UHGV virus genome: UHGV-2031204
Source: a virus
DNA: 64,000 bases
Reading direction: 5' to 3' (one strand)
A program made the position numbers and the translations under genes. Positions 14,039 to 54,113 of the stretch are shown here, piece after piece. The notes beneath the pieces are model-generated. The model saw only the letters and a program-made list of their open reading frames with translations. It made no database searches and was not told the DNA's origin. Numbering within the stretch: the first letter of the stretch is position 1; each line of letters opens with the position of its first letter.

Positions 14039-14974
14039 ATGGCAATCCCGAATATGCTCGCTATGTTGTTGCCGAGCTTTGAAGCAACAAACTTGAAAAA
14101 CCAACTCTCATCAAACTGCGATGCGATTGGTGAACAACTTTTACCGCGTTTCCAGTCTCTGCAAGAGCTGGTAGCGTCGAAAGAAGGCAAGCCGTTTAAA
14201 TCGAAAACGGTGCAGGACATGTCGGATGATTTGGTTAAATACCTGCGGAATTCCGGTCTGGAAGCCAAAGGTCTCCGTAATCCTTCGATGCTGGAATACA
14301 TCGTTGCCTCGATGGAAAACACGCTACAATTGCGTTCTTTCTTAGACCAATGTATTACGCGTGACATTGGTAAAGCGTTAGTCACGTCTTCAATGACGTT
14401 TAATAAATTAACGGTGCTCAGACTGCTTGACCTGATTGACTTCTTTACAGGTTACAGTGCCACCTTACTTAACTACGTAACCGCAGAAGAAATAGCCGCC
14501 GTAGAAGGCTCGAATATTGAAGTAAAAGGCGTCGGTCCGAATGACCTTCAATACCTCAATACTCGTTCTATTTCTTACTGCATTGCTGTCCGTGTGCTGG
14601 CAACGCCGCTGAATAAACTGAAAGCGGATTATGCGGAAATTCCTGAAGCGATCTTTAACGACGAAACTTACGGTGAGTTGGCGCAACAGTTCGGTTCGAG
14701 CTCCGTTGACCCACTGGGAATGAGCAGTGTACCGTTCCCAATCTCACTGATATTGCGCGTACGTTTGAATATCGCTGAACGGCAGATGGATAAGTACGAC
14801 GAGTGTGTAGAAGCGGCGAAAGCGGCGGAACTGCGTATCTTACTTTACAAAAAGCAAGTCGCAGAAGGTAAGGGTGATGCCCACATTGAGAAACTGATTG
14901 AAATCAGTGAAAAGCATCTGATGGAACTCAAGCACAAGCGTGAGCGTCTTGAAAAGAAATACGGTTTAGCGTAA
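14039..14974 (+). CDS. hypothetical protein
   Basis: 311-aa ORF with aagggg RBS; charged helical C-terminal region. Confidence 0.8.
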   Translation: MAIPNMLAMLLPSFEATNLKNQLSSNCDAIGEQLLPRFQSLQELVASKEGKPFKSKTVQDMSDDLVKYLRNSGLEAKGLRNPSMLEYIVASMENTLQLRSFLDQCITRDIGKALVTSSMTFNKLTVLRLLDLIDFFTGYSATLLNYVTAEEIAAVEGSNIEVKGVGPNDLQYLNTRSISYCIAVRVLATPLNKLKADYAEIPEAIFNDETYGELAQQFGSSSVDPLGMSSVPFPISLILRVRLNIAERQMDKYDECVEAAKAAELRILLYKKQVAEGKGDAHIEKLIEISEKHLMELKHKRERLEKKYGLA

Positions 14975-14991
14975 ACCGTTAGGAGAGGCGA

Positions 14992-15552
14992 ATGTTTGAG
15001 CACGATAGTCCTGAATTTAATGTTGCTGTAGAGCGCATTAAATCCTACATGTCGATTTTATCGAAAAACCCAATCGACACACACGATGACGAGGTTATTC
15101 ACAAAACACTGGAAGCCGCCGCCGTTATTTTACCGTACTTTCGTCTGATGGCTGCGGATTCTTTGCAGCAAGTATTATATGACGAATATCCGCAGGTCGG
15201 ATTTACCTTTAATACGTTTTATAACGAAAGTGTAGATTTCTTGCTGGATGGTAAGCGACGTAATGTGACGTTAGGGCAGTGGTCGACTTTGCTGTCGTCG
15301 TATATGAACGATGTTCGTAACACGAAGAATGTTGAACAGACGGGTGCATTAGGCTCGCGTCTATTAGCTGCTGCGTTTGGTCGCCGAGGTACTGTACGTA
15401 ATATGGGCTCTGCTCACCAATCCGTTGAGTGTAGCAAACGTCTTTTATCTTATGCAGACCATGAACTGCTGGCACGCTGGATGACGCGCCCGAACGGGTT
15501 GTCCGACATGATCTCGTCGTTAGCAGTGTTTTTGAAAATCGCACGTCCCTAA
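14992..15552 (+). CDS. hypothetical protein
   Basis: 186-aa ORF with aggagagg RBS. Confidence 0.8.
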   Translation: MFEHDSPEFNVAVERIKSYMSILSKNPIDTHDDEVIHKTLEAAAVILPYFRLMAADSLQQVLYDEYPQVGFTFNTFYNESVDFLLDGKRRNVTLGQWSTLLSSYMNDVRNTKNVEQTGALGSRLLAAAFGRRGTVRNMGSAHQSVECSKRLLSYADHELLARWMTRPNGLSDMISSLAVFLKIARP

Positions 15553-15611
15553 GGGGGCCCCTCATTCTAGGGGCGTGTAATTGGGTTATATAACCAAAGG
15601 AAATAAACGAA

Positions 15612-16883
15612 ATGGCAAATTTCGCAAAAACTCGCGCCGCTCGTGAATCGATGGAAGCGGCCGATGAAGTAATCGACGGTATCAGCAACGTTGAACCGGC
15701 AGAAGAGAACCTGGACGTCCAACTTGCGGACGTAGCATCTATCGACGGTCAGCTCGATCAGCTGGAAACCGACGGTGAAACCCTGGCTGCCGATACCGAG
15801 CGTACTGAAGACGCTATCGAACAGGCGGAAGAAGCCGTTGCTAACGGTGAAGAAATGCCGGAAGAAGCGGTTGCCCTGCACGAAGTGGCACAGGAATCCA
15901 TCGCACGTCGTTGGTGCCTGGAACGTACTAAACTGGCACGCGAATCCTATCGCCGTGGTCGTGGTATGACTGCTGCTGCCCAGGAAGGTTGGAAAGAAAC
16001 CCTGAAAGATCTTTACGATCGTTTCATTCAGTTCTGTAAAGAAGTGATTGCGAAGATCAAAGACCTGAAACTGAAATATTTCAACGTCGGTAAGACCGCA
16101 CAGAAACGTGCGAAGAAATATCAGGAAATGCTGCGTAAGCTGGGCAAACAGAAGAAAGATGAGATCTCTGGTGGCTTTATCACCAAGCTGTCTATCGAAG
16201 GTAAATTCGATGCCGCTGGCTCTATCGCTATTGCGAAAGAAGTTACCGCAGGTAAAGCTAAAGGTTCCATCGCTGTTCTGGAAAAACAAGCTGGTGAAGC
16301 TGTGACTGCCGTTACCAAAGGTGACGATGACGCATTCAAAGCAATGCGTGGCGATCAGCCGGTAGAACTGTTTGGTAAAGCTGCTTCTAAACTGCACACT
16401 CTGCCGAACTTTGAAAAAGGTGATGCGTCTAAACTCCTGGCTCTGCCGGGCAACGCTTACGTTCAGGCTGGTACTAAAGAACTGGCTGGCGGCCACAAGT
16501 TCACCGCAATTGCTTTCATGAGCACCGGTGACGCTTCTGACGATAAAGACGTGAAAACTCCGTCTGTTTCTGAAATGGCTGGTGCTGCTTCTGCTCTGGA
16601 AGCGATCGGTAAAGGTTTCGAAGCCGTACTGAAAGATTTCCGTGCTTACGATTCTGAAATCGTGAAGCTGCAACAGGCTGCTGAGAATGCTGCTAAGGCG
16701 CTGAACAACGAAAAAGACGATAGCAAGTGGGATGGCCTGCGTAACGCACGTCAAGCTGCCGATTGGTCTGTTAAGAACTACCAGACCCTGAACCGCGCAG
16801 TTAGCTATGTTGCTAACACCGTTATTAGCGGTCTGAATGGCTACCTGGGTGCTGGTATCGGTGCTTACGAAAAATCTAAATAA
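15612..16883 (+). CDS. abundant protein, paralog A of a tandem pair (probable virion component)
   Basis: 423 aa; strongly host-optimised codons (CGT, CTG, GGT, AAA, GAA); acidic N-terminal region; shares MANF..ARESME start, KLGKQKKDEISGGFI core and GYLGAGIGAYEKSK C-terminus with the next gene. Confidence 0.9.
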   Translation: MANFAKTRAARESMEAADEVIDGISNVEPAEENLDVQLADVASIDGQLDQLETDGETLAADTERTEDAIEQAEEAVANGEEMPEEAVALHEVAQESIARRWCLERTKLARESYRRGRGMTAAAQEGWKETLKDLYDRFIQFCKEVIAKIKDLKLKYFNVGKTAQKRAKKYQEMLRKLGKQKKDEISGGFITKLSIEGKFDAAGSIAIAKEVTAGKAKGSIAVLEKQAGEAVTAVTKGDDDAFKAMRGDQPVELFGKAASKLHTLPNFEKGDASKLLALPGNAYVQAGTKELAGGHKFTAIAFMSTGDASDDKDVKTPSVSEMAGAASALEAIGKGFEAVLKDFRAYDSEIVKLQQAAENAAKALNNEKDDSKWDGLRNARQAADWSVKNYQTLNRAVSYVANTVISGLNGYLGAGIGAYEKSK

Positions 16884-16965
16884 TCATTTAGATTCGTAGT
16901 TCCGTACAGTTCTTGAAATAAATCATCAGGGGAACAATACGTTCCCCTTAGAGGAAAAGCTTAAA

Positions 16966-18231
16966 ATGGCGAATTTCTACAAAAACAAAATTGCTCGTGA
17001 GTCTATGGAGTCTACTTCTACTGTAGTTCCAGACGGCATCGAACTGCCAGCAGAATCCGTAGAAGGCACTCTGGCCGATATCGAGCATGACACCAAACCG
17101 ATCGAAGCTCTGGACGCTGACGCTGAACTGCTGGCAGAAGACGGCGACGAAACTGACGCTCAGCTGGATGTTCTGGATGAAGCTCAGGCTGCTGCTGACG
17201 GTGAAGGTGCAGGCGAAGACGGTGAAGAACCGATGGATGCCGAAGAAGATATGCCGGACGACGCTGCGACTGCGCTGGACGTTGCTCAGGAATCTATCCG
17301 TTCTCGTTGGAACTTCGAACACCGTTCTTCTGTTGCACACGAATCCTACGGTTCTCGTAACCGTCGTCAGGTTGCTCGTGAATCCCTGTGGGAAGACATC
17401 AAAGCCTTCCTGGGCCGTATTCTCGATTGGCTGAAAGAACAAGGCCGCAAACTGAAAGATCGCTGGCTGAAATTCCACAACCAGGGTAAATCTATTCAGG
17501 CACGTGCTAAGAAATACGATGAAGTTATTCGTAAGCTTGGCAAACAGAAGAAAGATGAGATCTCTGGTGGCTTTATCAAGTCTCTGTCTATCGACGGCAA
17601 GTTCGTCGGTGATAATATTCCGAAACTGAAAGGTATCCTTAACCAGGTCTCCTCGTTCTATAGCGCTAAGATGCCTGCCATGGCCGCTAAAGCTGCTGAA
17701 GTGGTTTCCGATGTTACCAAAGGTAATGGCGTTAAAGTTGAAAAACTGAAAGCCGACTTTACCGAACTGTCCAAACAAGACAGTCTCCAAAACTTCAAGC
17801 TCGGTAACATGGCGGTGAAAACCGAGTATGACAACGAAGGCGGCTTCAGCTCCACCTTTGTTGAAGCTGAAAACAGCGTTGAAACTAGCGTGAAAACTCC
17901 GTCTGTTGGCGAACTGGCCAAAATCAATGCTCTCTTCAACGAAGTGGGTAAACAGATTGAGAAGAACGTTCAGGATTATCGTAAAGTCGAAAGCGCGCGG
18001 AAAACCTTTGAAGATAATATCGATAAGCTCCTGAAAGAAGTCGATAAAGTTAAGATCGACGAAAAACCGGAACTGACCGAAGGTGTACGTGCTGCCCGTC
18101 GTTTCATCACCAGCGTTAACCAGGGTCTGTCTCTGGGTGAGAAGGTTATTGCTTCTACTCAGAAACACCTGGCCGGTGGTCTGAACGGTTACCTGAGTGC
18201 CGGTATCGGCGCTTACGAAAAATCTAAATAA
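16966..18231 (+). CDS. abundant protein, paralog B of a tandem pair (probable virion component)
   Basis: 421 aa; same codon bias and shared blocks as 15612-16883, including a long near-identical nucleotide stretch around 17531-17606. Confidence 0.9.
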   Translation: MANFYKNKIARESMESTSTVVPDGIELPAESVEGTLADIEHDTKPIEALDADAELLAEDGDETDAQLDVLDEAQAAADGEGAGEDGEEPMDAEEDMPDDAATALDVAQESIRSRWNFEHRSSVAHESYGSRNRRQVARESLWEDIKAFLGRILDWLKEQGRKLKDRWLKFHNQGKSIQARAKKYDEVIRKLGKQKKDEISGGFIKSLSIDGKFVGDNIPKLKGILNQVSSFYSAKMPAMAAKAAEVVSDVTKGNGVKVEKLKADFTELSKQDSLQNFKLGNMAVKTEYDNEGGFSSTFVEAENSVETSVKTPSVGELAKINALFNEVGKQIEKNVQDYRKVESARKTFEDNIDKLLKEVDKVKIDEKPELTEGVRAARRFITSVNQGLSLGEKVIASTQKHLAGGLNGYLSAGIGAYEKSK

Positions 18232-18249
18232 TCCCTGATTGTTTAGTAA

Positions 18250-18297
18250 GAGAACCACCCTGTAATGGGGTGGTTCTCTCTTTTCTTTTTTTTTCGA
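18250..18297 (+). terminator. intrinsic terminator
   Basis: agagaaccaccctgtaatggggtggttctct followed by a long T-run. Confidence 0.75.
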
Positions 18298-18310
18298 TTA
18301 AAATAATTTT

Positions 18311-18334
18311 CAGATATATATTACCTAGGTGAGA
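18311..18334 (+). promoter_or_regulatory. conserved promoter-like motif, copy 1 (cagatatatattacctaggtgaga)
   Basis: Identical 24-mer recurs at 26567 and, with 2 mismatches, at 54090; always just after a terminator and about 50 nt before a start codon; followed by an inverted repeat gagattac/gtaatctc. Confidence 0.55.
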
Positions 18335-18384
18335 TTACACAGTAATCTCTTTACGACTTGTTTATTACGTTTAGGAGAAATATC

Positions 18385-19026
18385 ATGAGCCGCATTAATT
18401 TAACTGATTTTGTTGATGGTGTTGTGTCTACGGATAAAGGTGTTGTTACGATGGTGGCACCGAATAGTAAAGTTGTTACTTTAAATCCGGTAGAACTGAT
18501 TTCTATTTCTACCTGGTTGCGCTTACTTTCTGGTAAGAAACCTAAAGACCAAGCGAAGGGTGGCCTATTAGTTGGTACACGTGAGTTTGTTTTCAAAGAC
18601 ATAACCCAAGATAAACTGGACAGCATTGCTAAAGAACTGAACGGCAAGCATAAAACTCGCGACATCGGGTGTGCCGAATATGACGGAGTAACGTACCATG
18701 CGTTTCTTGATAGTCACGTAGCATTGCGTGAAAAAGAAAATGGGATGTACGATTCAGTTTGTTTCTTTCACTTAATCGCACCAACAGAAAACGAAGCTGT
18801 GTATGAAACCGTTGAAAAATCGGCGGAAGCTGTTATGGAAACGGTGTCAGAACTTATAGAAGGGATGAAAAGAATCCCACGTGTGTTGAAAGTTACTGAT
18901 GGGGCTTTCGATTGTTTTAAATTATTACCCCTAATAGCTAGTAAAGAATACGAAGATGAGAACACCTTCGGACTATTCGAAATTAGTCTTTCGGAAGCAG
19001 TTGTTACTTTCTTTGAAGATTTATGA
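18385..19026 (+). CDS. hypothetical protein
   Basis: 213-aa ORF; ATG at 18385 preceded by ttaggagaaa; the track start at 18358 lacks an RBS. Confidence 0.8.
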   Translation: MSRINLTDFVDGVVSTDKGVVTMVAPNSKVVTLNPVELISISTWLRLLSGKKPKDQAKGGLLVGTREFVFKDITQDKLDSIAKELNGKHKTRDIGCAEYDGVTYHAFLDSHVALREKENGMYDSVCFFHLIAPTENEAVYETVEKSAEAVMETVSELIEGMKRIPRVLKVTDGAFDCFKLLPLIASKEYEDENTFGLFEISLSEAVVTFFEDL

Positions 19027-19030
19027 GATA

Positions 19031-26447: not shown

Positions 26448-26566
26448 TCCTAAACGACACGCAGAAGTCATTTAACCGTTAAGACGACTAATTACCCTTT
26501 AAAAAGAAAATTGCGTCAGAATGCGTTTTAGAGCGTTCTAGAGGGTATATGGATTCAAAAAGATTT

Positions 26567-26590
26567 CAGATATATATTACCTAGGTGAGA
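26567..26590 (+). promoter_or_regulatory. conserved promoter-like motif, copy 2 (cagatatatattacctaggtgaga)
   Basis: Exact copy of the 18311 24-mer, about 45 nt upstream of the small ORF at 26637. Confidence 0.55.
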
Positions 26591-30763: not shown

Positions 30764-33058
30764 ATGAAAGATACCCGAATCTCTAATCTGGAGAAACTCG
30801 TACAAGCTGGTAACTCGCTGGTACAAAGCGTCATTAGTAACAACAGTGCTGGCGAAATGTGGAACACCATCGTTGCTGGTGAGTCTGTACGTAGCAACAC
30901 GAAAGTTTTTGGTACCCTGCGTGACGATGCTGCACAGCACTACGCAAACGCGTTTGCTGGCGGTAAGAAAATGTCCCACGCTGCGGAAGTTGCTTCTGCA
31001 ATGATTCTGGGTGCTGCTGGTCACGGTATGGACCTGCAAGAAAAAGTAGCGCAAGAATACGCTAAGCCAGAATTCCATAGCCGTTTTAACCTGGACGTTG
31101 CGATTCCTGGTTCCCAAGCTGGTAACGGCGACTGGGGCAAAGAGCGTATGGTTGTTGCTCAGGAATACTACACCAACAAAGATTACGACAAAAACCTGGG
31201 TCTGACCTGGACGCTGAACGTACGTGCTCTGGAAACTCAGTCTCGTTTTGCTGAGACTCTGTTCCCGACCATCACCGTTGACACCAACGATGTTGGTATT
31301 ACCGTACGTACCAAAGTGACCACCGTTTCTCGTGGTGTCATGCACGCGTTACTGACCAAAGACGTTGTTGAAGATCATCGTCGTAACCTGCACGAAGCGC
31401 TGACTGACCACACCGTTCTTCAGGACGAAGCGATCAACATCGTTCCTTACGTAATGGAAACCGGTGAAAACGCTGAATACTTCGTAAGCGAAGATCTGGT
31501 ACCGAACGAATCTGTTCGTCTGGGCCGCGTACCTCCGTACCCGACTAACTACCTGAGCTTTGCTAAAGACACTCTGAACCTGTTCCAGCTGTCTGCGCAT
31601 CCGGGTATCGTTCAGGAAGGTTACGACGAAACTGATGAAATCGCACCGGGTTGTGCTCTGGGCAGCCTGCTGATTTCCGTACGTAAACCGACCGAAGAAG
31701 CGAAAGCAGGTAAATTCATCAAACTGCACGTTCGTGACATGCAGTTCGCAACCTTCCAGCGTCCTGCTGAAGGTGATGGTCGTGAGCTGGTACTGCAATT
31801 CCGTCGTACTGCGTTCTCTCTGAATGCGAAAACTACCGACTGGAAAGGCGAAGCTATTCCGGCACTGAAATCACTGGAACAGAACTCCTACACCCTGCGT
31901 TATGTGATCACCATCAACATGTCTCTGTTCACTACCGGTCAGTTCGGTGGCAAAGTTGACATCGCTGGTCACAAACTGGAAATCGAAGGTCTGTACGACG
32001 CTACCGGTAACAAAGTTGATACCAAATCTGGTACCGGCAAAGTTATCCTGGACGGTCTGAAACTTGAACTGATGGGCTGGCGCTTCGATGGTACTCGTAC
32101 CAACGAAAACCGTCGTACCCAGGGTCTGCTGCTCGACCCAATCTGGGAACAAGAAAACTACAAGCTGCAATACGGTTCTCCGATTCTGACCAAGTCTCCG
32201 GTTGGCGTTGAATACGACGATACCGAACGTCTGGACGACCTGATTTCCGCAGTTAACATCCGTAACGAACAGCTGGCTATCACTCAGACGCTGTCTTACA
32301 CCGAAGCGGTACGTAACGCTGCTGCAAGCATGATCACTCCGTGGGACAAACCGGCCATTCGTGGTCTGGGCCGTCACTGGGTTGCTCCGTGGTTCAAAGA
32401 GTCTGACTACAACGTTGATGAAGTTGTACAGTCCCTGGATACCAAAGATGCACTGATCAACGCTCGTCAGGGCCTGGTACAGCGTATCGGTAATCAGGTA
32501 ACTCAGGCTATCCAGGAATCTCGCTTCATTCCTGCGCTGCGTCTGTACACTGCCGATCCGGACATTCTGCCGAAAGTTGTTATTGCAACTGACGAACCGA
32601 CTGCATCTATGCTGCTGCTGGTACAGGGCGACCAACGTCTGCTGGGCGATCGCTACGAATACGAAGTGATCACCACCAACGATGACCGCTGGCGTATCTA
32701 CAACGCAGCTGACGGTTCCTGGACTCGTCGTCTGCAATGGTTCCTGAAAGTTCCGACTGCGGACGATGGTTCCTACAACGTGCTGAACTGGGGTAACCAC
32801 TTCTGGTCTCCGATCATGGTTACCAACATCAACATTCAGCGTAACGGTTCTACCTCTAAAGAGCTGGCCGTACAGCCGCGTAACGCGCACATCTGCCACT
32901 GCCCGATCACTGGTCTGATCTGGGTTAAAGGCATCACCAAACTGGTTGAAGAAAAACTGGCTTACAATGTTTCTGTTGAACAGAACGGTCAGAAACAAAC
33001 CGAAGGTGGTGTAGCAGGTAACGTTGCTGGCGAAGGCAAAGCTGCTGCTGGTAAGTAA
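30764..33058 (+). CDS. highly expressed 764-aa protein; candidate major capsid protein (alternatively tail sheath or phage-nucleus shell protein)
   Basis: Very strong host-optimised codon usage over the whole ORF, unlike neighbouring genes; size compatible with the large capsid proteins of jumbo myoviruses; terminator follows. Function is inferred, not motif-based. Confidence 0.6.
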   Translation: MKDTRISNLEKLVQAGNSLVQSVISNNSAGEMWNTIVAGESVRSNTKVFGTLRDDAAQHYANAFAGGKKMSHAAEVASAMILGAAGHGMDLQEKVAQEYAKPEFHSRFNLDVAIPGSQAGNGDWGKERMVVAQEYYTNKDYDKNLGLTWTLNVRALETQSRFAETLFPTITVDTNDVGITVRTKVTTVSRGVMHALLTKDVVEDHRRNLHEALTDHTVLQDEAINIVPYVMETGENAEYFVSEDLVPNESVRLGRVPPYPTNYLSFAKDTLNLFQLSAHPGIVQEGYDETDEIAPGCALGSLLISVRKPTEEAKAGKFIKLHVRDMQFATFQRPAEGDGRELVLQFRRTAFSLNAKTTDWKGEAIPALKSLEQNSYTLRYVITINMSLFTTGQFGGKVDIAGHKLEIEGLYDATGNKVDTKSGTGKVILDGLKLELMGWRFDGTRTNENRRTQGLLLDPIWEQENYKLQYGSPILTKSPVGVEYDDTERLDDLISAVNIRNEQLAITQTLSYTEAVRNAAASMITPWDKPAIRGLGRHWVAPWFKESDYNVDEVVQSLDTKDALINARQGLVQRIGNQVTQAIQESRFIPALRLYTADPDILPKVVIATDEPTASMLLLVQGDQRLLGDRYEYEVITTNDDRWRIYNAADGSWTRRLQWFLKVPTADDGSYNVLNWGNHFWSPIMVTNINIQRNGSTSKELAVQPRNAHICHCPITGLIWVKGITKLVEEKLAYNVSVEQNGQKQTEGGVAGNVAGEGKAAAGK

Positions 33059-49429: not shown

Positions 49430-49479
49430 AGTTAGTCAGGGCGGGCTTCTCCCCGCTTTAGCTTAAAATGGGGTAAAGG

Positions 49480-50613
49480 ATGTCAACATTAGATTCCGAT
49501 TTAGAAGTCCTTTGCGATGACTACGATCGATTGGTCGCGTTAGAATCGCTTAATGTTAAAGACAACTATCCGGCGGTTGTCGCTATCCGAAAACGGTGGG
49601 CTTTAGATGATGTCCACGTTGCGTTGGAGTCCGCAGCGATGATGGAACGCGCGCAATTTGTTGCGGACACCGAGCCTTACGCAGGGGTAGGTAAAGCGGT
49701 CGCACGCGCGACCGGCAGAGCGGTTAAGGGAGTTGGACGCGTTGCTGGAAAAGCAGCAGTGGCAGGAGCCAAAGCGTCTGGAAAATTCGCAGGTAAACAT
49801 TCTAAGCAACTGGCCTTACGTTTTATCGACTTCGCGGAAGCCGCTGGTAAAGAAGTTATTAATGAACTGAAAGAAGCGACGTCCAAAGCATCGTCGTTAG
49901 AGCGGAAGCTACAGAAGTTAGAAGCACGTTTAAGTTTACTCGGTATCAAGGACACCTTAAAACCGGTTGACTGTGACACAGGAAGTTGGACAACCAAAGT
50001 TTGTTTAGAAGACAAGCCTAACGTAAAAGCATGTATTGAGTTCAGTAAGAACCTGAGCGCAATGGATGCGATGGTCAACGAGTATACTGTTAAAACACGT
50101 ACGTTAATCGGTAAGAGCAAGAAAGTTACCGAGAGCGGTTTGGAGAAAGTGGGCCGGTCAACGAACTGGGCGATTAAACGAAGCGCAGGACTGTTCGGTA
50201 TTATCGATCCGTTTAAAACGGTGAAAGCATATCCGTGGCCAGGTAACGTGGTGGTCGTTGAACACGACAGCGGTAAGATTGAGTGGGCGATTGCCCGCGA
50301 TGGTGATTTTGGCCACACAATTAAATCTCTGAACTTGCACGAAATCGGTTCAGCATTCGACGCCGTTAGAAACATTATCCGAGCGTTACGTCAGCGTGGT
50401 GCGAAACGACGTAGTGTTGGGTATACAGGAATTTATGATGAAATTCAACGTATGCGTAAGGAACTTAAGTCGCTTGAAGGGCGGGAGTTACGCGACGCTA
50501 CCGTACGTTATAAAAACGCACTGCGTTTAGAAGATGCGTTTACTACCTCGTTAGTGCGCGTTGCGGAAGGGTTACTGGAATGGTGCAGGTTGTCGCTGAT
50601 TGAGGTTAAATAA
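49480..50613 (+). CDS. hypothetical protein with Gly/Ala/Lys-rich repeat region
   Basis: 377-aa ORF; region GKAVARATGRAVKGVGRVAGKAAVAGAKASGKFAGK. Confidence 0.8.
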   Translation: MSTLDSDLEVLCDDYDRLVALESLNVKDNYPAVVAIRKRWALDDVHVALESAAMMERAQFVADTEPYAGVGKAVARATGRAVKGVGRVAGKAAVAGAKASGKFAGKHSKQLALRFIDFAEAAGKEVINELKEATSKASSLERKLQKLEARLSLLGIKDTLKPVDCDTGSWTTKVCLEDKPNVKACIEFSKNLSAMDAMVNEYTVKTRTLIGKSKKVTESGLEKVGRSTNWAIKRSAGLFGIIDPFKTVKAYPWPGNVVVVEHDSGKIEWAIARDGDFGHTIKSLNLHEIGSAFDAVRNIIRALRQRGAKRRSVGYTGIYDEIQRMRKELKSLEGRELRDATVRYKNALRLEDAFTTSLVRVAEGLLEWCRLSLIEVK

Positions 50614-54088: not shown

Positions 54089-54089
54089 T

Positions 54090-54113
54090 CAGATATATTT
54101 TACTTAGGTGAGA
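54090..54113 (+). promoter_or_regulatory. conserved promoter-like motif, copy 3 (cagatatattttacttaggtgaga)
   Basis: Matches the 18311/26567 24-mer with 2 mismatches; directly after a terminator; followed by inverted repeat agagtta/taactct; about 50 nt before the HTH gene start. Confidence 0.5.

Follow-up and report, generated by a model that had tools for sequence, protein, structure and literature searches.

Why should two neighbouring genes that have drifted apart over most of their length keep patches of nearly identical DNA? The question is raised by genes A and B, which lie in tandem between positions 15,612 and 18,231 of a 64,000-nucleotide stretch of UHGV virus genome UHGV-2031204, the whole of which is called the window here. 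We consider it very probable that A and B code for the pair of major internal head (ejection) proteins of a Seoul-like, phiKZ-related jumbo phage, and that short gene conversions have passed between them. The original prediction had picked out the pair as two proteins of ~420 residues; its coordinates are exact, and BLASTP aligns the products at 36% identity over their full length (E 8e-56), which makes them tandem paralogs. Every motif that it had quoted as shared is found in both proteins: ARESME at residue 10 of each, KLGKQKKDEISGGFI at residue 176 of A and 190 of B, VKTPSV at 314 and 309, and AGIGAYEKSK at 414 and 412.

What kind of protein is encoded twice? Both products match PF12699, the Pfam family of phiKZ-like internal head proteins, over the full length (profile positions 2-387), with scores of 242.9 bits for A (8.7e-72) and 195.0 bits for B (3.1e-57) against a cut-off of 27, and both match phrog_2497, named 'internal head protein' (2.3e-147 and 9.2e-120, respectively). 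Protein A is 68.6% identical to the gp53-type protein of SPN3US and 34.8% identical to the gp54-type, while B is 62.3% identical to the gp54-type and 34.2% to the gp53-type. An alignment of 28 orthologs from 14 genomes (the window and 13 others) extends this pattern: gene A shares 55-73% identity with whichever gene comes first in a pair and 28-35% with the one that follows, and gene B shows the converse, with 45-62% identity to the gp54-type. The order of genes is that of SPN3US and Asesino, in which two leftward and three rightward virion structural genes are followed by the internal head pair, small open reading frames (ORFs) and DHFR, and the position of the tandem pair is also kept in 11 further relatives, for which shorter flanks were compared. 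The window holds no third member of the family, as a hidden Markov model built from the 28 orthologs matches A and B only. Because synteny and the pattern of best identity agree, A is, as judged by sequence, the ortholog of SPN3US gp53 and B that of gp54. Since A groups with the gp53-type and B with the gp54-type across the 14 genomes, the alignment shows a duplication older than the whole SPN3US-like clade, the copies having since diverged to the 27-36% identity found between A and B in every one of these genomes.

Both genes are written in strongly biased codons. With the Escherichia coli weights of Sharp and Li 1987, which presuppose a host that is only inferred, the codon adaptation index (CAI) is 0.69 for A and 0.64 for B, compared with a median of 0.28 for the window and 0.42 for the next gene. 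This bears out the host-optimised codon use that had been noticed in both genes. Among the 60 genes of the window they rank second and third, and only the major capsid gene stands higher, at 0.73. This trio mirrors the three dominant head proteins of SPN3US, in which gp53, gp54 and the major capsid protein are the most abundant proteins of the head, gp53 and gp54 among them at more than 600 copies each per head (PMC5694885).

How would the two precursors be processed? The SPN3US prohead protease gp245, of the S80 family, cuts after A-X-E; gp53 has mapped cuts at ARE-12, AQE-95 and AQE-125, and gp54 at AQE-124 and ARE-137, giving mature N-termini of (E)GWKETLKDLFER, including (E)GWKETLKDL, for gp53 and (E)SLWDDIK for gp54 (PMC10052503). 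In the window proteins an A-X-E motif lines up with every mapped site, gp54 AQE-124 being represented by AHE-126 and ARE-137 by ARE-139. The residues behind the maturation cuts are kept as well: in A, AQE-125 is followed by GWKETLKDLYDR (GWKETLKDL), and in B, VARE is followed by SLWEDIK. Cleavage at these places would yield fragments of 13.7 and 32.1 kDa from A and of 15.1 and 31.3 kDa from B, matching the published SPN3US fragments of 13.8 and 31.5 kDa and of 14.8 and 30.3 kDa. The acidic N-terminal regions described in the original prediction have isoelectric points (pI) of 4.2 in A (residues 1-125) and 4.1 in B (residues 1-139). What it missed is that the shared ARESME motif contains, as ARE/S (the slash marks the cut), a site mapped as a protease cut in SPN3US.

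The rest of each protein is predicted to be a basic domain rich in helices. For A, AlphaFold2 with an alignment of 52 sequences gives a confident model (predicted local distance difference test 84.3, predicted template-modelling score 0.82) that has long helices at residues 34-77, 84-100, 119-175, 201-236, 319-365 and 371-417 and a beta subdomain at 276-315. Its fold recurs in 106 viral models of BFVD at E <=1e-3, and those that carry a name are internal head or virion structural proteins of jumbo phages. In SPN3US, gp53 and gp54 are called ejection proteins; they are cut by the prohead protease and are present in tailless heads (PMC5694885, PMC10052503). By orthology, A and B would each be made in very large amounts as a precursor of ~46 kDa, whose acidic N-terminal ~125 or ~139 residues, with the shared MANF..K..ARE/S, may direct or anchor the protein inside the assembling capsid, a role suggested by the phiKZ capsid structure of the PF12699 relatives gp93 and gp162. 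The S80 prohead protease would cut the propeptide at several A-X-E places, and the freed basic domain of ~31-32 kDa would stay in the head with the DNA and leave it at infection.

Could the two proteins instead form a classical scaffold that leaves the head completely as it matures, or decorate the capsid from outside? Scaffolds often have acidic N-terminal regions and helical content, and in protease-deficient 'mottled' capsids of SPN3US, gp53 and gp54 build an inner T=1 shell that looks scaffold-like and is gone on maturation, though the proteins stay (PMC7552025). It is this last point that tells against expulsion, since in abundance the mature domains of the orthologs rank in the top three among the mature head's proteins, and tailless heads contain them too; the Pfam and PHROG families, moreover, are those of internal head proteins, and the phiKZ relatives sit on the capsid's inner surface, not the outer. 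We judge a scaffold or decoration role highly unlikely. The expectation of abundant virion proteins is thus supported, through PF12699 membership and orthology to the SPN3US pair. Among the kinds that had been listed, 'internal proteins' is the apt one and 'decoration' falls away, while 'scaffold/core' fits the inner T=1 shell and not the mature parts retained in the virion.

Why, then, do parts of A and B look alike at the level of DNA? Near identity over ~50 nt had been reported between 16135-16210 and 17531-17606; 66 of these 76 nucleotides are identical, and the core is a block of 49 nt with one mismatch, flanked by sequence at paralog-level divergence. In a GENECONV-like permutation on the codon alignment of the 28 orthologs, 30 polymorphic sites in a row match across the central block (p=0.0002). 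Over the central 51 nt, the A and B of the window differ from each other at three positions and from any ortholog at seven or more, with 8-12 differences between B and the nearest ortholog-type. The 13 other genomes do not share this near identity of A and B in the block and encode similar peptides by different codons and with partly different residues. Some of them are homogenised at the 5' end instead: the two genes of SPN3US are identical at 40 of the first 48 nt and those of Caitlin at 43 of 48, and the 5'-end runs are significant (p <=0.002) in SPN3US, STsAS, SNUABM29, Caitlin and SNUABM8, five of the 13 genomes.

The conversion tracts are polymorphic within one phage lineage. Taking the window and the sister strains ROBE23, GAIO21, k119 and GAP86 in that order, A and B differ at 16, 16, 0, 0 and 14 of the first 47 nt, at 3, 4, 13, 13 and 17 of the central 51 nt, and at 1, 3, 4, 5 and 7 of the last 27 nt. 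It is the comparison with relatives and sister strains that settles the matter: the mosaic identity is due to gene conversion and not to constraint at the nucleotide level, a case for which the window alone is good but not closed. Of the two explanations originally offered, gene conversion therefore stands, and strong constraint falls because the relatives and sister strains lack the identical block. Short stretches are overwritten repeatedly by non-allelic gene conversion between the tandem copies, producing the mosaic.

In which direction did the sequence move? All B genes of the lineage read KQKKDEIS at the central block and the A genes of the sister strains read KQDKDN(V/I)S or KQEKDKVS, which is nearer to what A genes of neighbouring genera have, so that the central block of the window, where A carries KDEIS like the B genes of the lineage, was probably converted from B to A. 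The last ~23 nt are probably a second conversion tract in the window, whose A ends in AYEKSK and not in the AYKKSK of the sister-strain A genes. The first ~30-47 nt were converted in sister strains and in other genera. In the sister strains the direction is shown to be A to B, because A reads the same in each of the five strains while B varies: three of them, among which is the most diverged strain, have a different version in B, MANFYKNKI. The phrase 'gene conversion' is absent from the SPN3US papers PMC10052503 and PMC5694885, and searching full texts for it together with 'internal head protein' gave no result.

Two other accounts of the identical block have to be weighed against gene conversion. 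Selection on the nucleotides themselves could have kept the 49 nt, if these form an RNA structure, make ribosomes pause or serve as a site for regulation or packaging, and it is in keeping with this that both copies share the non-optimal codons AAG, GAG, TTT and GGC within genes that are otherwise strongly codon-optimised. Yet the 13 other genomes use different codons for a similar peptide, whose residues also differ in part between A and B, and in three of the five lineage strains A and B differ at 13-17 of the 51 nt, with A encoding KQDKDNVS or KQEKDKVS. An element needed for its nucleotide sequence would not be missing from near-identical phages, and the strain polymorphism largely refutes this account, to which we give almost no credence. 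Chance is scarcely more persuasive. A conserved peptide combined with a strong shared codon bias might suffice to make the DNA nearly identical, given that the background frequency of the same codon at shared residues is 0.67; this bias is why a run test restricted to synonymous codons is weak, at just p=0.05. What chance does not explain is that the window copies lie at three of 51 nt from each other and at seven or more from any ortholog, that the A gene of the window has the B-type KDEIS in place of the KEN(I)S, KQDKDN(V/I)S or KQEKDKVS found in its closest-genus orthologs and the A genes of sister strains, and that the run over all polymorphic sites remains significant. Nor can codon bias give 47 identical nucleotides out of 47 at the 5' end in two sister strains and 14-16 differences in three strains of the same lineage. 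We therefore regard a chance origin as extremely improbable.

A third account draws on the variation among strains, which is unevenly spread over the locus. The A propeptide has 99-100% nucleotide identity in all four sister strains, and so do the upstream genes in three of them (86-96% in k119). Identity falls to 82-93% within mature A; in mature B it is 57-85% to three sister strains and 93-98% to GAIO21. The following gene (18358-19026) is replaced in the sister strains by unrelated sequence or by an ORF of 59 residues. Over B residues 215-325 the ratio of nonsynonymous to synonymous divergence (dN/dS) is 0.3-0.4 in two strains, compared with 0.06-0.13 in the propeptide, and dS is near saturation, which points to imported divergent alleles in the mature domain of B. 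Might the patchwork then stem mainly from allelic exchange of mature-domain cassettes between co-infecting phages, with conversion between A and B a minor contributor? The mosaic between strains, the replaced gene and the near-saturated dS of the variable parts all favour exchange. Allelic exchange cannot, however, make A resemble B, and what is identical, the 49-nt block and the 47-nt 5' end, stands at non-allelic positions amid paralog-level divergence, so that ectopic exchange between A and B is needed at some point. As the main source of the patchwork we find it unlikely; for the strains without a tract it is plausibly the explanation, and probably both processes act.

Several points weigh against the conclusion that A and B are internal head proteins homogenised by gene conversion. 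Abundance, virion content and cleavage in this phage would follow from orthology to SPN3US at 62-69% identity. The CAI values depend on the choice of E. coli weights noted above. The synonymous-only test is marginal. The direction of the central and 3' events is uncertain, because mature A and B are mosaic between strains and the A-B differences of the sister strains could be imported alleles rather than unconverted ancestry. Finally, the gene for the prohead protease is not in the 64-kb window. A protein annotated as an S80 protease, 80.9% identical to SPN3US gp245, is encoded on the 222-kb NZ_CP134650.1, a sequence 89.9% identical to the window across the locus, and on this evidence the protease appears to be present in the phage lineage.

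What does this mean for the two genes? The pair needs no new explanation, being the ordinary and well-described gp53/gp54 pair of a Seoul-like jumbo phage. The new content is modest and lies in the polymorphic micro-conversion in both directions and in strain variation centred on the mature (ejected) domains, for neither of which an earlier description was found. The repeated homogenising of the N-terminal ~15 codons, in five of 13 other genomes and in two strains of the lineage, gives independent support from natural variation for the published idea that this peptide serves both proteins as a signal for capsid targeting and cleavage. Natural chimeras and divergent mature-domain alleles are already available in public assemblies of 'persistent' jumbo phages and could be used to map the constrained parts of these proteins. 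One further idea is tentative, and we think it rather improbable: the ejected mature halves, chiefly that of the gp54-type copy, would be a fast-exchanging, host-facing cassette (for example in anti-defence, or in host take-over as with T4 IPI), while short conversions keep uniform the parts that must fit in assembly, namely the N-terminal targeting and cleavage peptide, the LGKQKKDEISGGFI core and the C-terminal tail. It is prompted by the fall of identity over the mature domain of B, the dN/dS of 0.3-0.4 there and the conversion tracts polymorphic in both directions.

How closely does the locus resemble known systems? SPN3US gp53 and gp54 ('paralog family A') share with A and B the Pfam family, the tandem order, the neighbourhood and the lengths, as well as the layout of acidic propeptide and basic mature domain. 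Their ~15 identical N-terminal residues have been likened to a capsid-targeting sequence (PMC5694885). They differ from the window pair in that the homogenised stretch is the 5' end and not the central block, and in that window A lacks the terminal Ala of gp53-type proteins. The inner-body proteins of phiKZ (gp93, gp94, gp95, gp162 and gp163) belong to the same PF12699 and the same predicted helix-rich fold class, and there a homologous S80 protease cuts the family, once near residue 12-13 (SLE-13 in gp93) and again deeper in the chain (PMC5694885, PMC11297242). The N-terminal segments of gp93 and gp162 are bound between capsid hexamers on the inner surface, the modelled segment of gp93 beginning at Ser14, directly after the SLE-13 cut, and the helix-rich C-terminal domains freed by proteolysis are thought to form the inner body (PMC11297242). 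Unlike the pair described here, the phiKZ family has at least five members, a lower copy number and a defined cylindrical inner body, and its protease motif is S/A/G-X-E rather than strictly A-X-E (PMC5694885). Another phiKZ protein, the vertex-binding minor capsid protein gp86 (PDB 8y6v chain G), has 10% sequence identity and belongs to a different Pfam family. A search by sequence for a solved structure gave only a chance match to a ribosomal protein (E 0.85), the gp93 fragment in 8y6v being too short or too distant to be found in this way; phmmer with the window proteins did not find that fragment either, the similarity being too low.

The internal proteins of T4 (IPI, IPII and IPIII) are abundant, basic, packed with the DNA and injected. 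They carry a short shared N-terminal targeting peptide that is removed by the prohead protease after Glu, and their locus is highly variable among related phages. Their likeness to A and B is a functional analogy only (the comparison is made in PMC5694885). The T4 proteins are much smaller and have a propeptide of ~10 residues cut at L/I-X-E, in contrast to the 125-139 residues and A-X-E sites of A and B, and no homology to them is detectable, PF12699 being the sole Pfam match of either window protein.

To which phages does the window belong? At the DNA level, the deposited phages closest to the locus are Erwinia Stratton, Asesino and phiEaH2 and Salmonella STsAS and SPAsTU, at ~76% identity; SPN3US matches at 80%, but just across the initial 764 nt. 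No close match to the lineage was found among 50,697 deposited phage records. Under the label 'plasmid' it is listed, at ~90% identity, in NZ_CP173450.1 (E. coli 98232, 221,873 bp) and NZ_CP134650.1 (Enterobacter ludwigii, 222,441 bp). An exact copy of protein A is encoded on metagenome contigs, and contigs of 222-227 kb in many Salmonella, Shigella and E. coli assemblies, from which the four sister strains were taken, carry close relatives. The window thus matches the persistent 'Seoul-like' jumbo phages, which have been described as persistent infections in Enterobacteriaceae isolates (bioRxiv 10.1101/2024.12.31.630880). Protein P0004, a fragment of 327 residues that is 96% identical to A, bears the NCBI name 'preprotein translocase subunit YajC, partial [Escherichia coli]', an evident misannotation.

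Table 1. Features of the A-B locus, in window coordinates
Feature	Position	Strand	Details
GC-rich hairpin over the stop codon of ORF 14992-15552	15537-15582	+	no T-tract
Gene A, internal head/ejection protein (SPN3US gp53 ortholog by sequence)	15612-16883	+	423 aa, 45.7 kDa precursor
Predicted acidic propeptide of A	15612-15986	+	residues 1-125, 13.7 kDa, pI 4.2
A-X-E motifs in A	ARE-12 15639-15647; AQE-95 15888-15896; ARE-111 15936-15944; AQE-125 15978-15986	+	
Predicted mature basic domain of A	15987-16880	+	residues 126-423, 32.1 kDa, pI 9.3
Central conversion tract, A copy	16134-16182	+	encodes RKLGKQKKDEISGGFI; 48/49 nt identical to 17530-17578; sole mismatch at 16142
3'-terminal identical stretch in A	16863-16885	+	GCTTACGAAAAATCTAAATAATC, including stop codon; partner 18211-18233
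Intergenic hairpin	16928-16948	+	8-bp stem AGGGGAAC/GTTCCCCT, loop AATAC, no T-tract
Gene B, internal head/ejection protein (SPN3US gp54 ortholog by sequence)	16966-18231	+	421 aa, 46.4 kDa precursor
Predicted acidic propeptide of B	16966-17382	+	residues 1-139, 15.1 kDa, pI 4.1
A-X-E motifs in B	ARE-12 16993-17001; AQE-109 17284-17292; AHE-126 17335-17343; ARE-139 17374-17382	+	
Predicted mature basic domain of B	17383-18228	+	residues 140-421, 31.3 kDa, pI 9.4; most strain-variable part of the locus
Central conversion tract, B copy	17530-17578	+	partner of 16134-16182
Intrinsic terminator after gene B	18249-18295	+	14-bp stem (18249-18279), then T run

The hairpin without a T-tract that had been placed between the genes is present. 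Its folding energy is -13.4 kcal/mol (z = -3.95 against shuffled sequences), and it ends 1 nt ahead of the Shine-Dalgarno sequence of gene B, AGAGGA (16950-16955). All 14 genomes have an equivalent hairpin of 7-10 bp whose end lies 0-1 nt ahead of AGAGGA; the stems fall into about a dozen sequences, and a T-tract is lacking every time. RNAalifold finds compensatory changes in four of seven pairs of the A-B spacer; this understates the covariation, since hairpins are partly out of register in the MAFFT alignment, and folds of the individual genomes were used. Our guess is that the hairpin is an element of mRNA processing or stability, or a partial stop separating two genes that are required at similar levels. 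Behind gene B, a GC-rich stem with a T run is likewise present in all 14 genomes.

Upstream of A, the hairpin over the stop codon of the preceding ORF has the same fold and a nearly invariant sequence in all 14 genomes (RNAfold, 85 nt upstream of A). It is followed by the palindrome GGTTATATAACC (15585-15597) and by the conserved leader GTGTAATTGGGTTATATAACCAAAGGAA ahead of A, a motif that occurs only once in the window. The major capsid gene, tested to see whether such structures are a general trait of highly expressed genes, has no strong upstream hairpin. At 49430-49479, ahead of the gene at 49480-50613, a hairpin GGGCGGG...CCCCGC without a T-tract (-13.1 kcal/mol) lies ~16 nt before a start codon, a placement similar to that of the hairpin before gene B.

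Some neighbouring features deserve a word. The ORF at 14992-15552, directly upstream of A, has a weak match to PF25618 (phiKZ gp91, vertex-binding; 29.8 bits, cut-off 27), which suggests a counterpart of a component of the inner-surface vertex complex. The region 15900-19030 forms a variable island at the boundary of the structural module. The major head protein gene at 30764-33058, the one with the highest CAI of the window, encodes A-X-E motifs at residues 98 and 134 (VAQE/YY), the latter close in residue number to the ATE-130 maturation site of SPN3US gp75. Antisense ORFs at 15567-16754 (minus strand, 395 aa) and 16948-18258 (minus strand, 436 aa) overlap two sense genes with strong homology support and, on the ground of this overlap, were judged to reflect the extreme codon bias of the sense genes rather than to be genes themselves, no homolog search having been aimed at them.

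How is the locus transcribed? A scan of 14900-18500 gave no sigma-70 promoters, a result that fits the use by phiKZ-like phages of their own RNA polymerases. A motif of 24 nt, TCAGATATATATTACCTAGGTGAG, occurs at 18310-18333, 26566-26589 and 54089-54112, in two exact copies and one with two mismatches, where none is expected by chance. Its first copy lies just past the terminator of gene B and is conserved after gene B in relatives. The motif contains TATATTAC and resembles the predicted promoters of phiKZ and 201phi2-1 (PMC7058600, Table 2); it is likely a promoter for a phage RNA polymerase that opens the next transcription unit.

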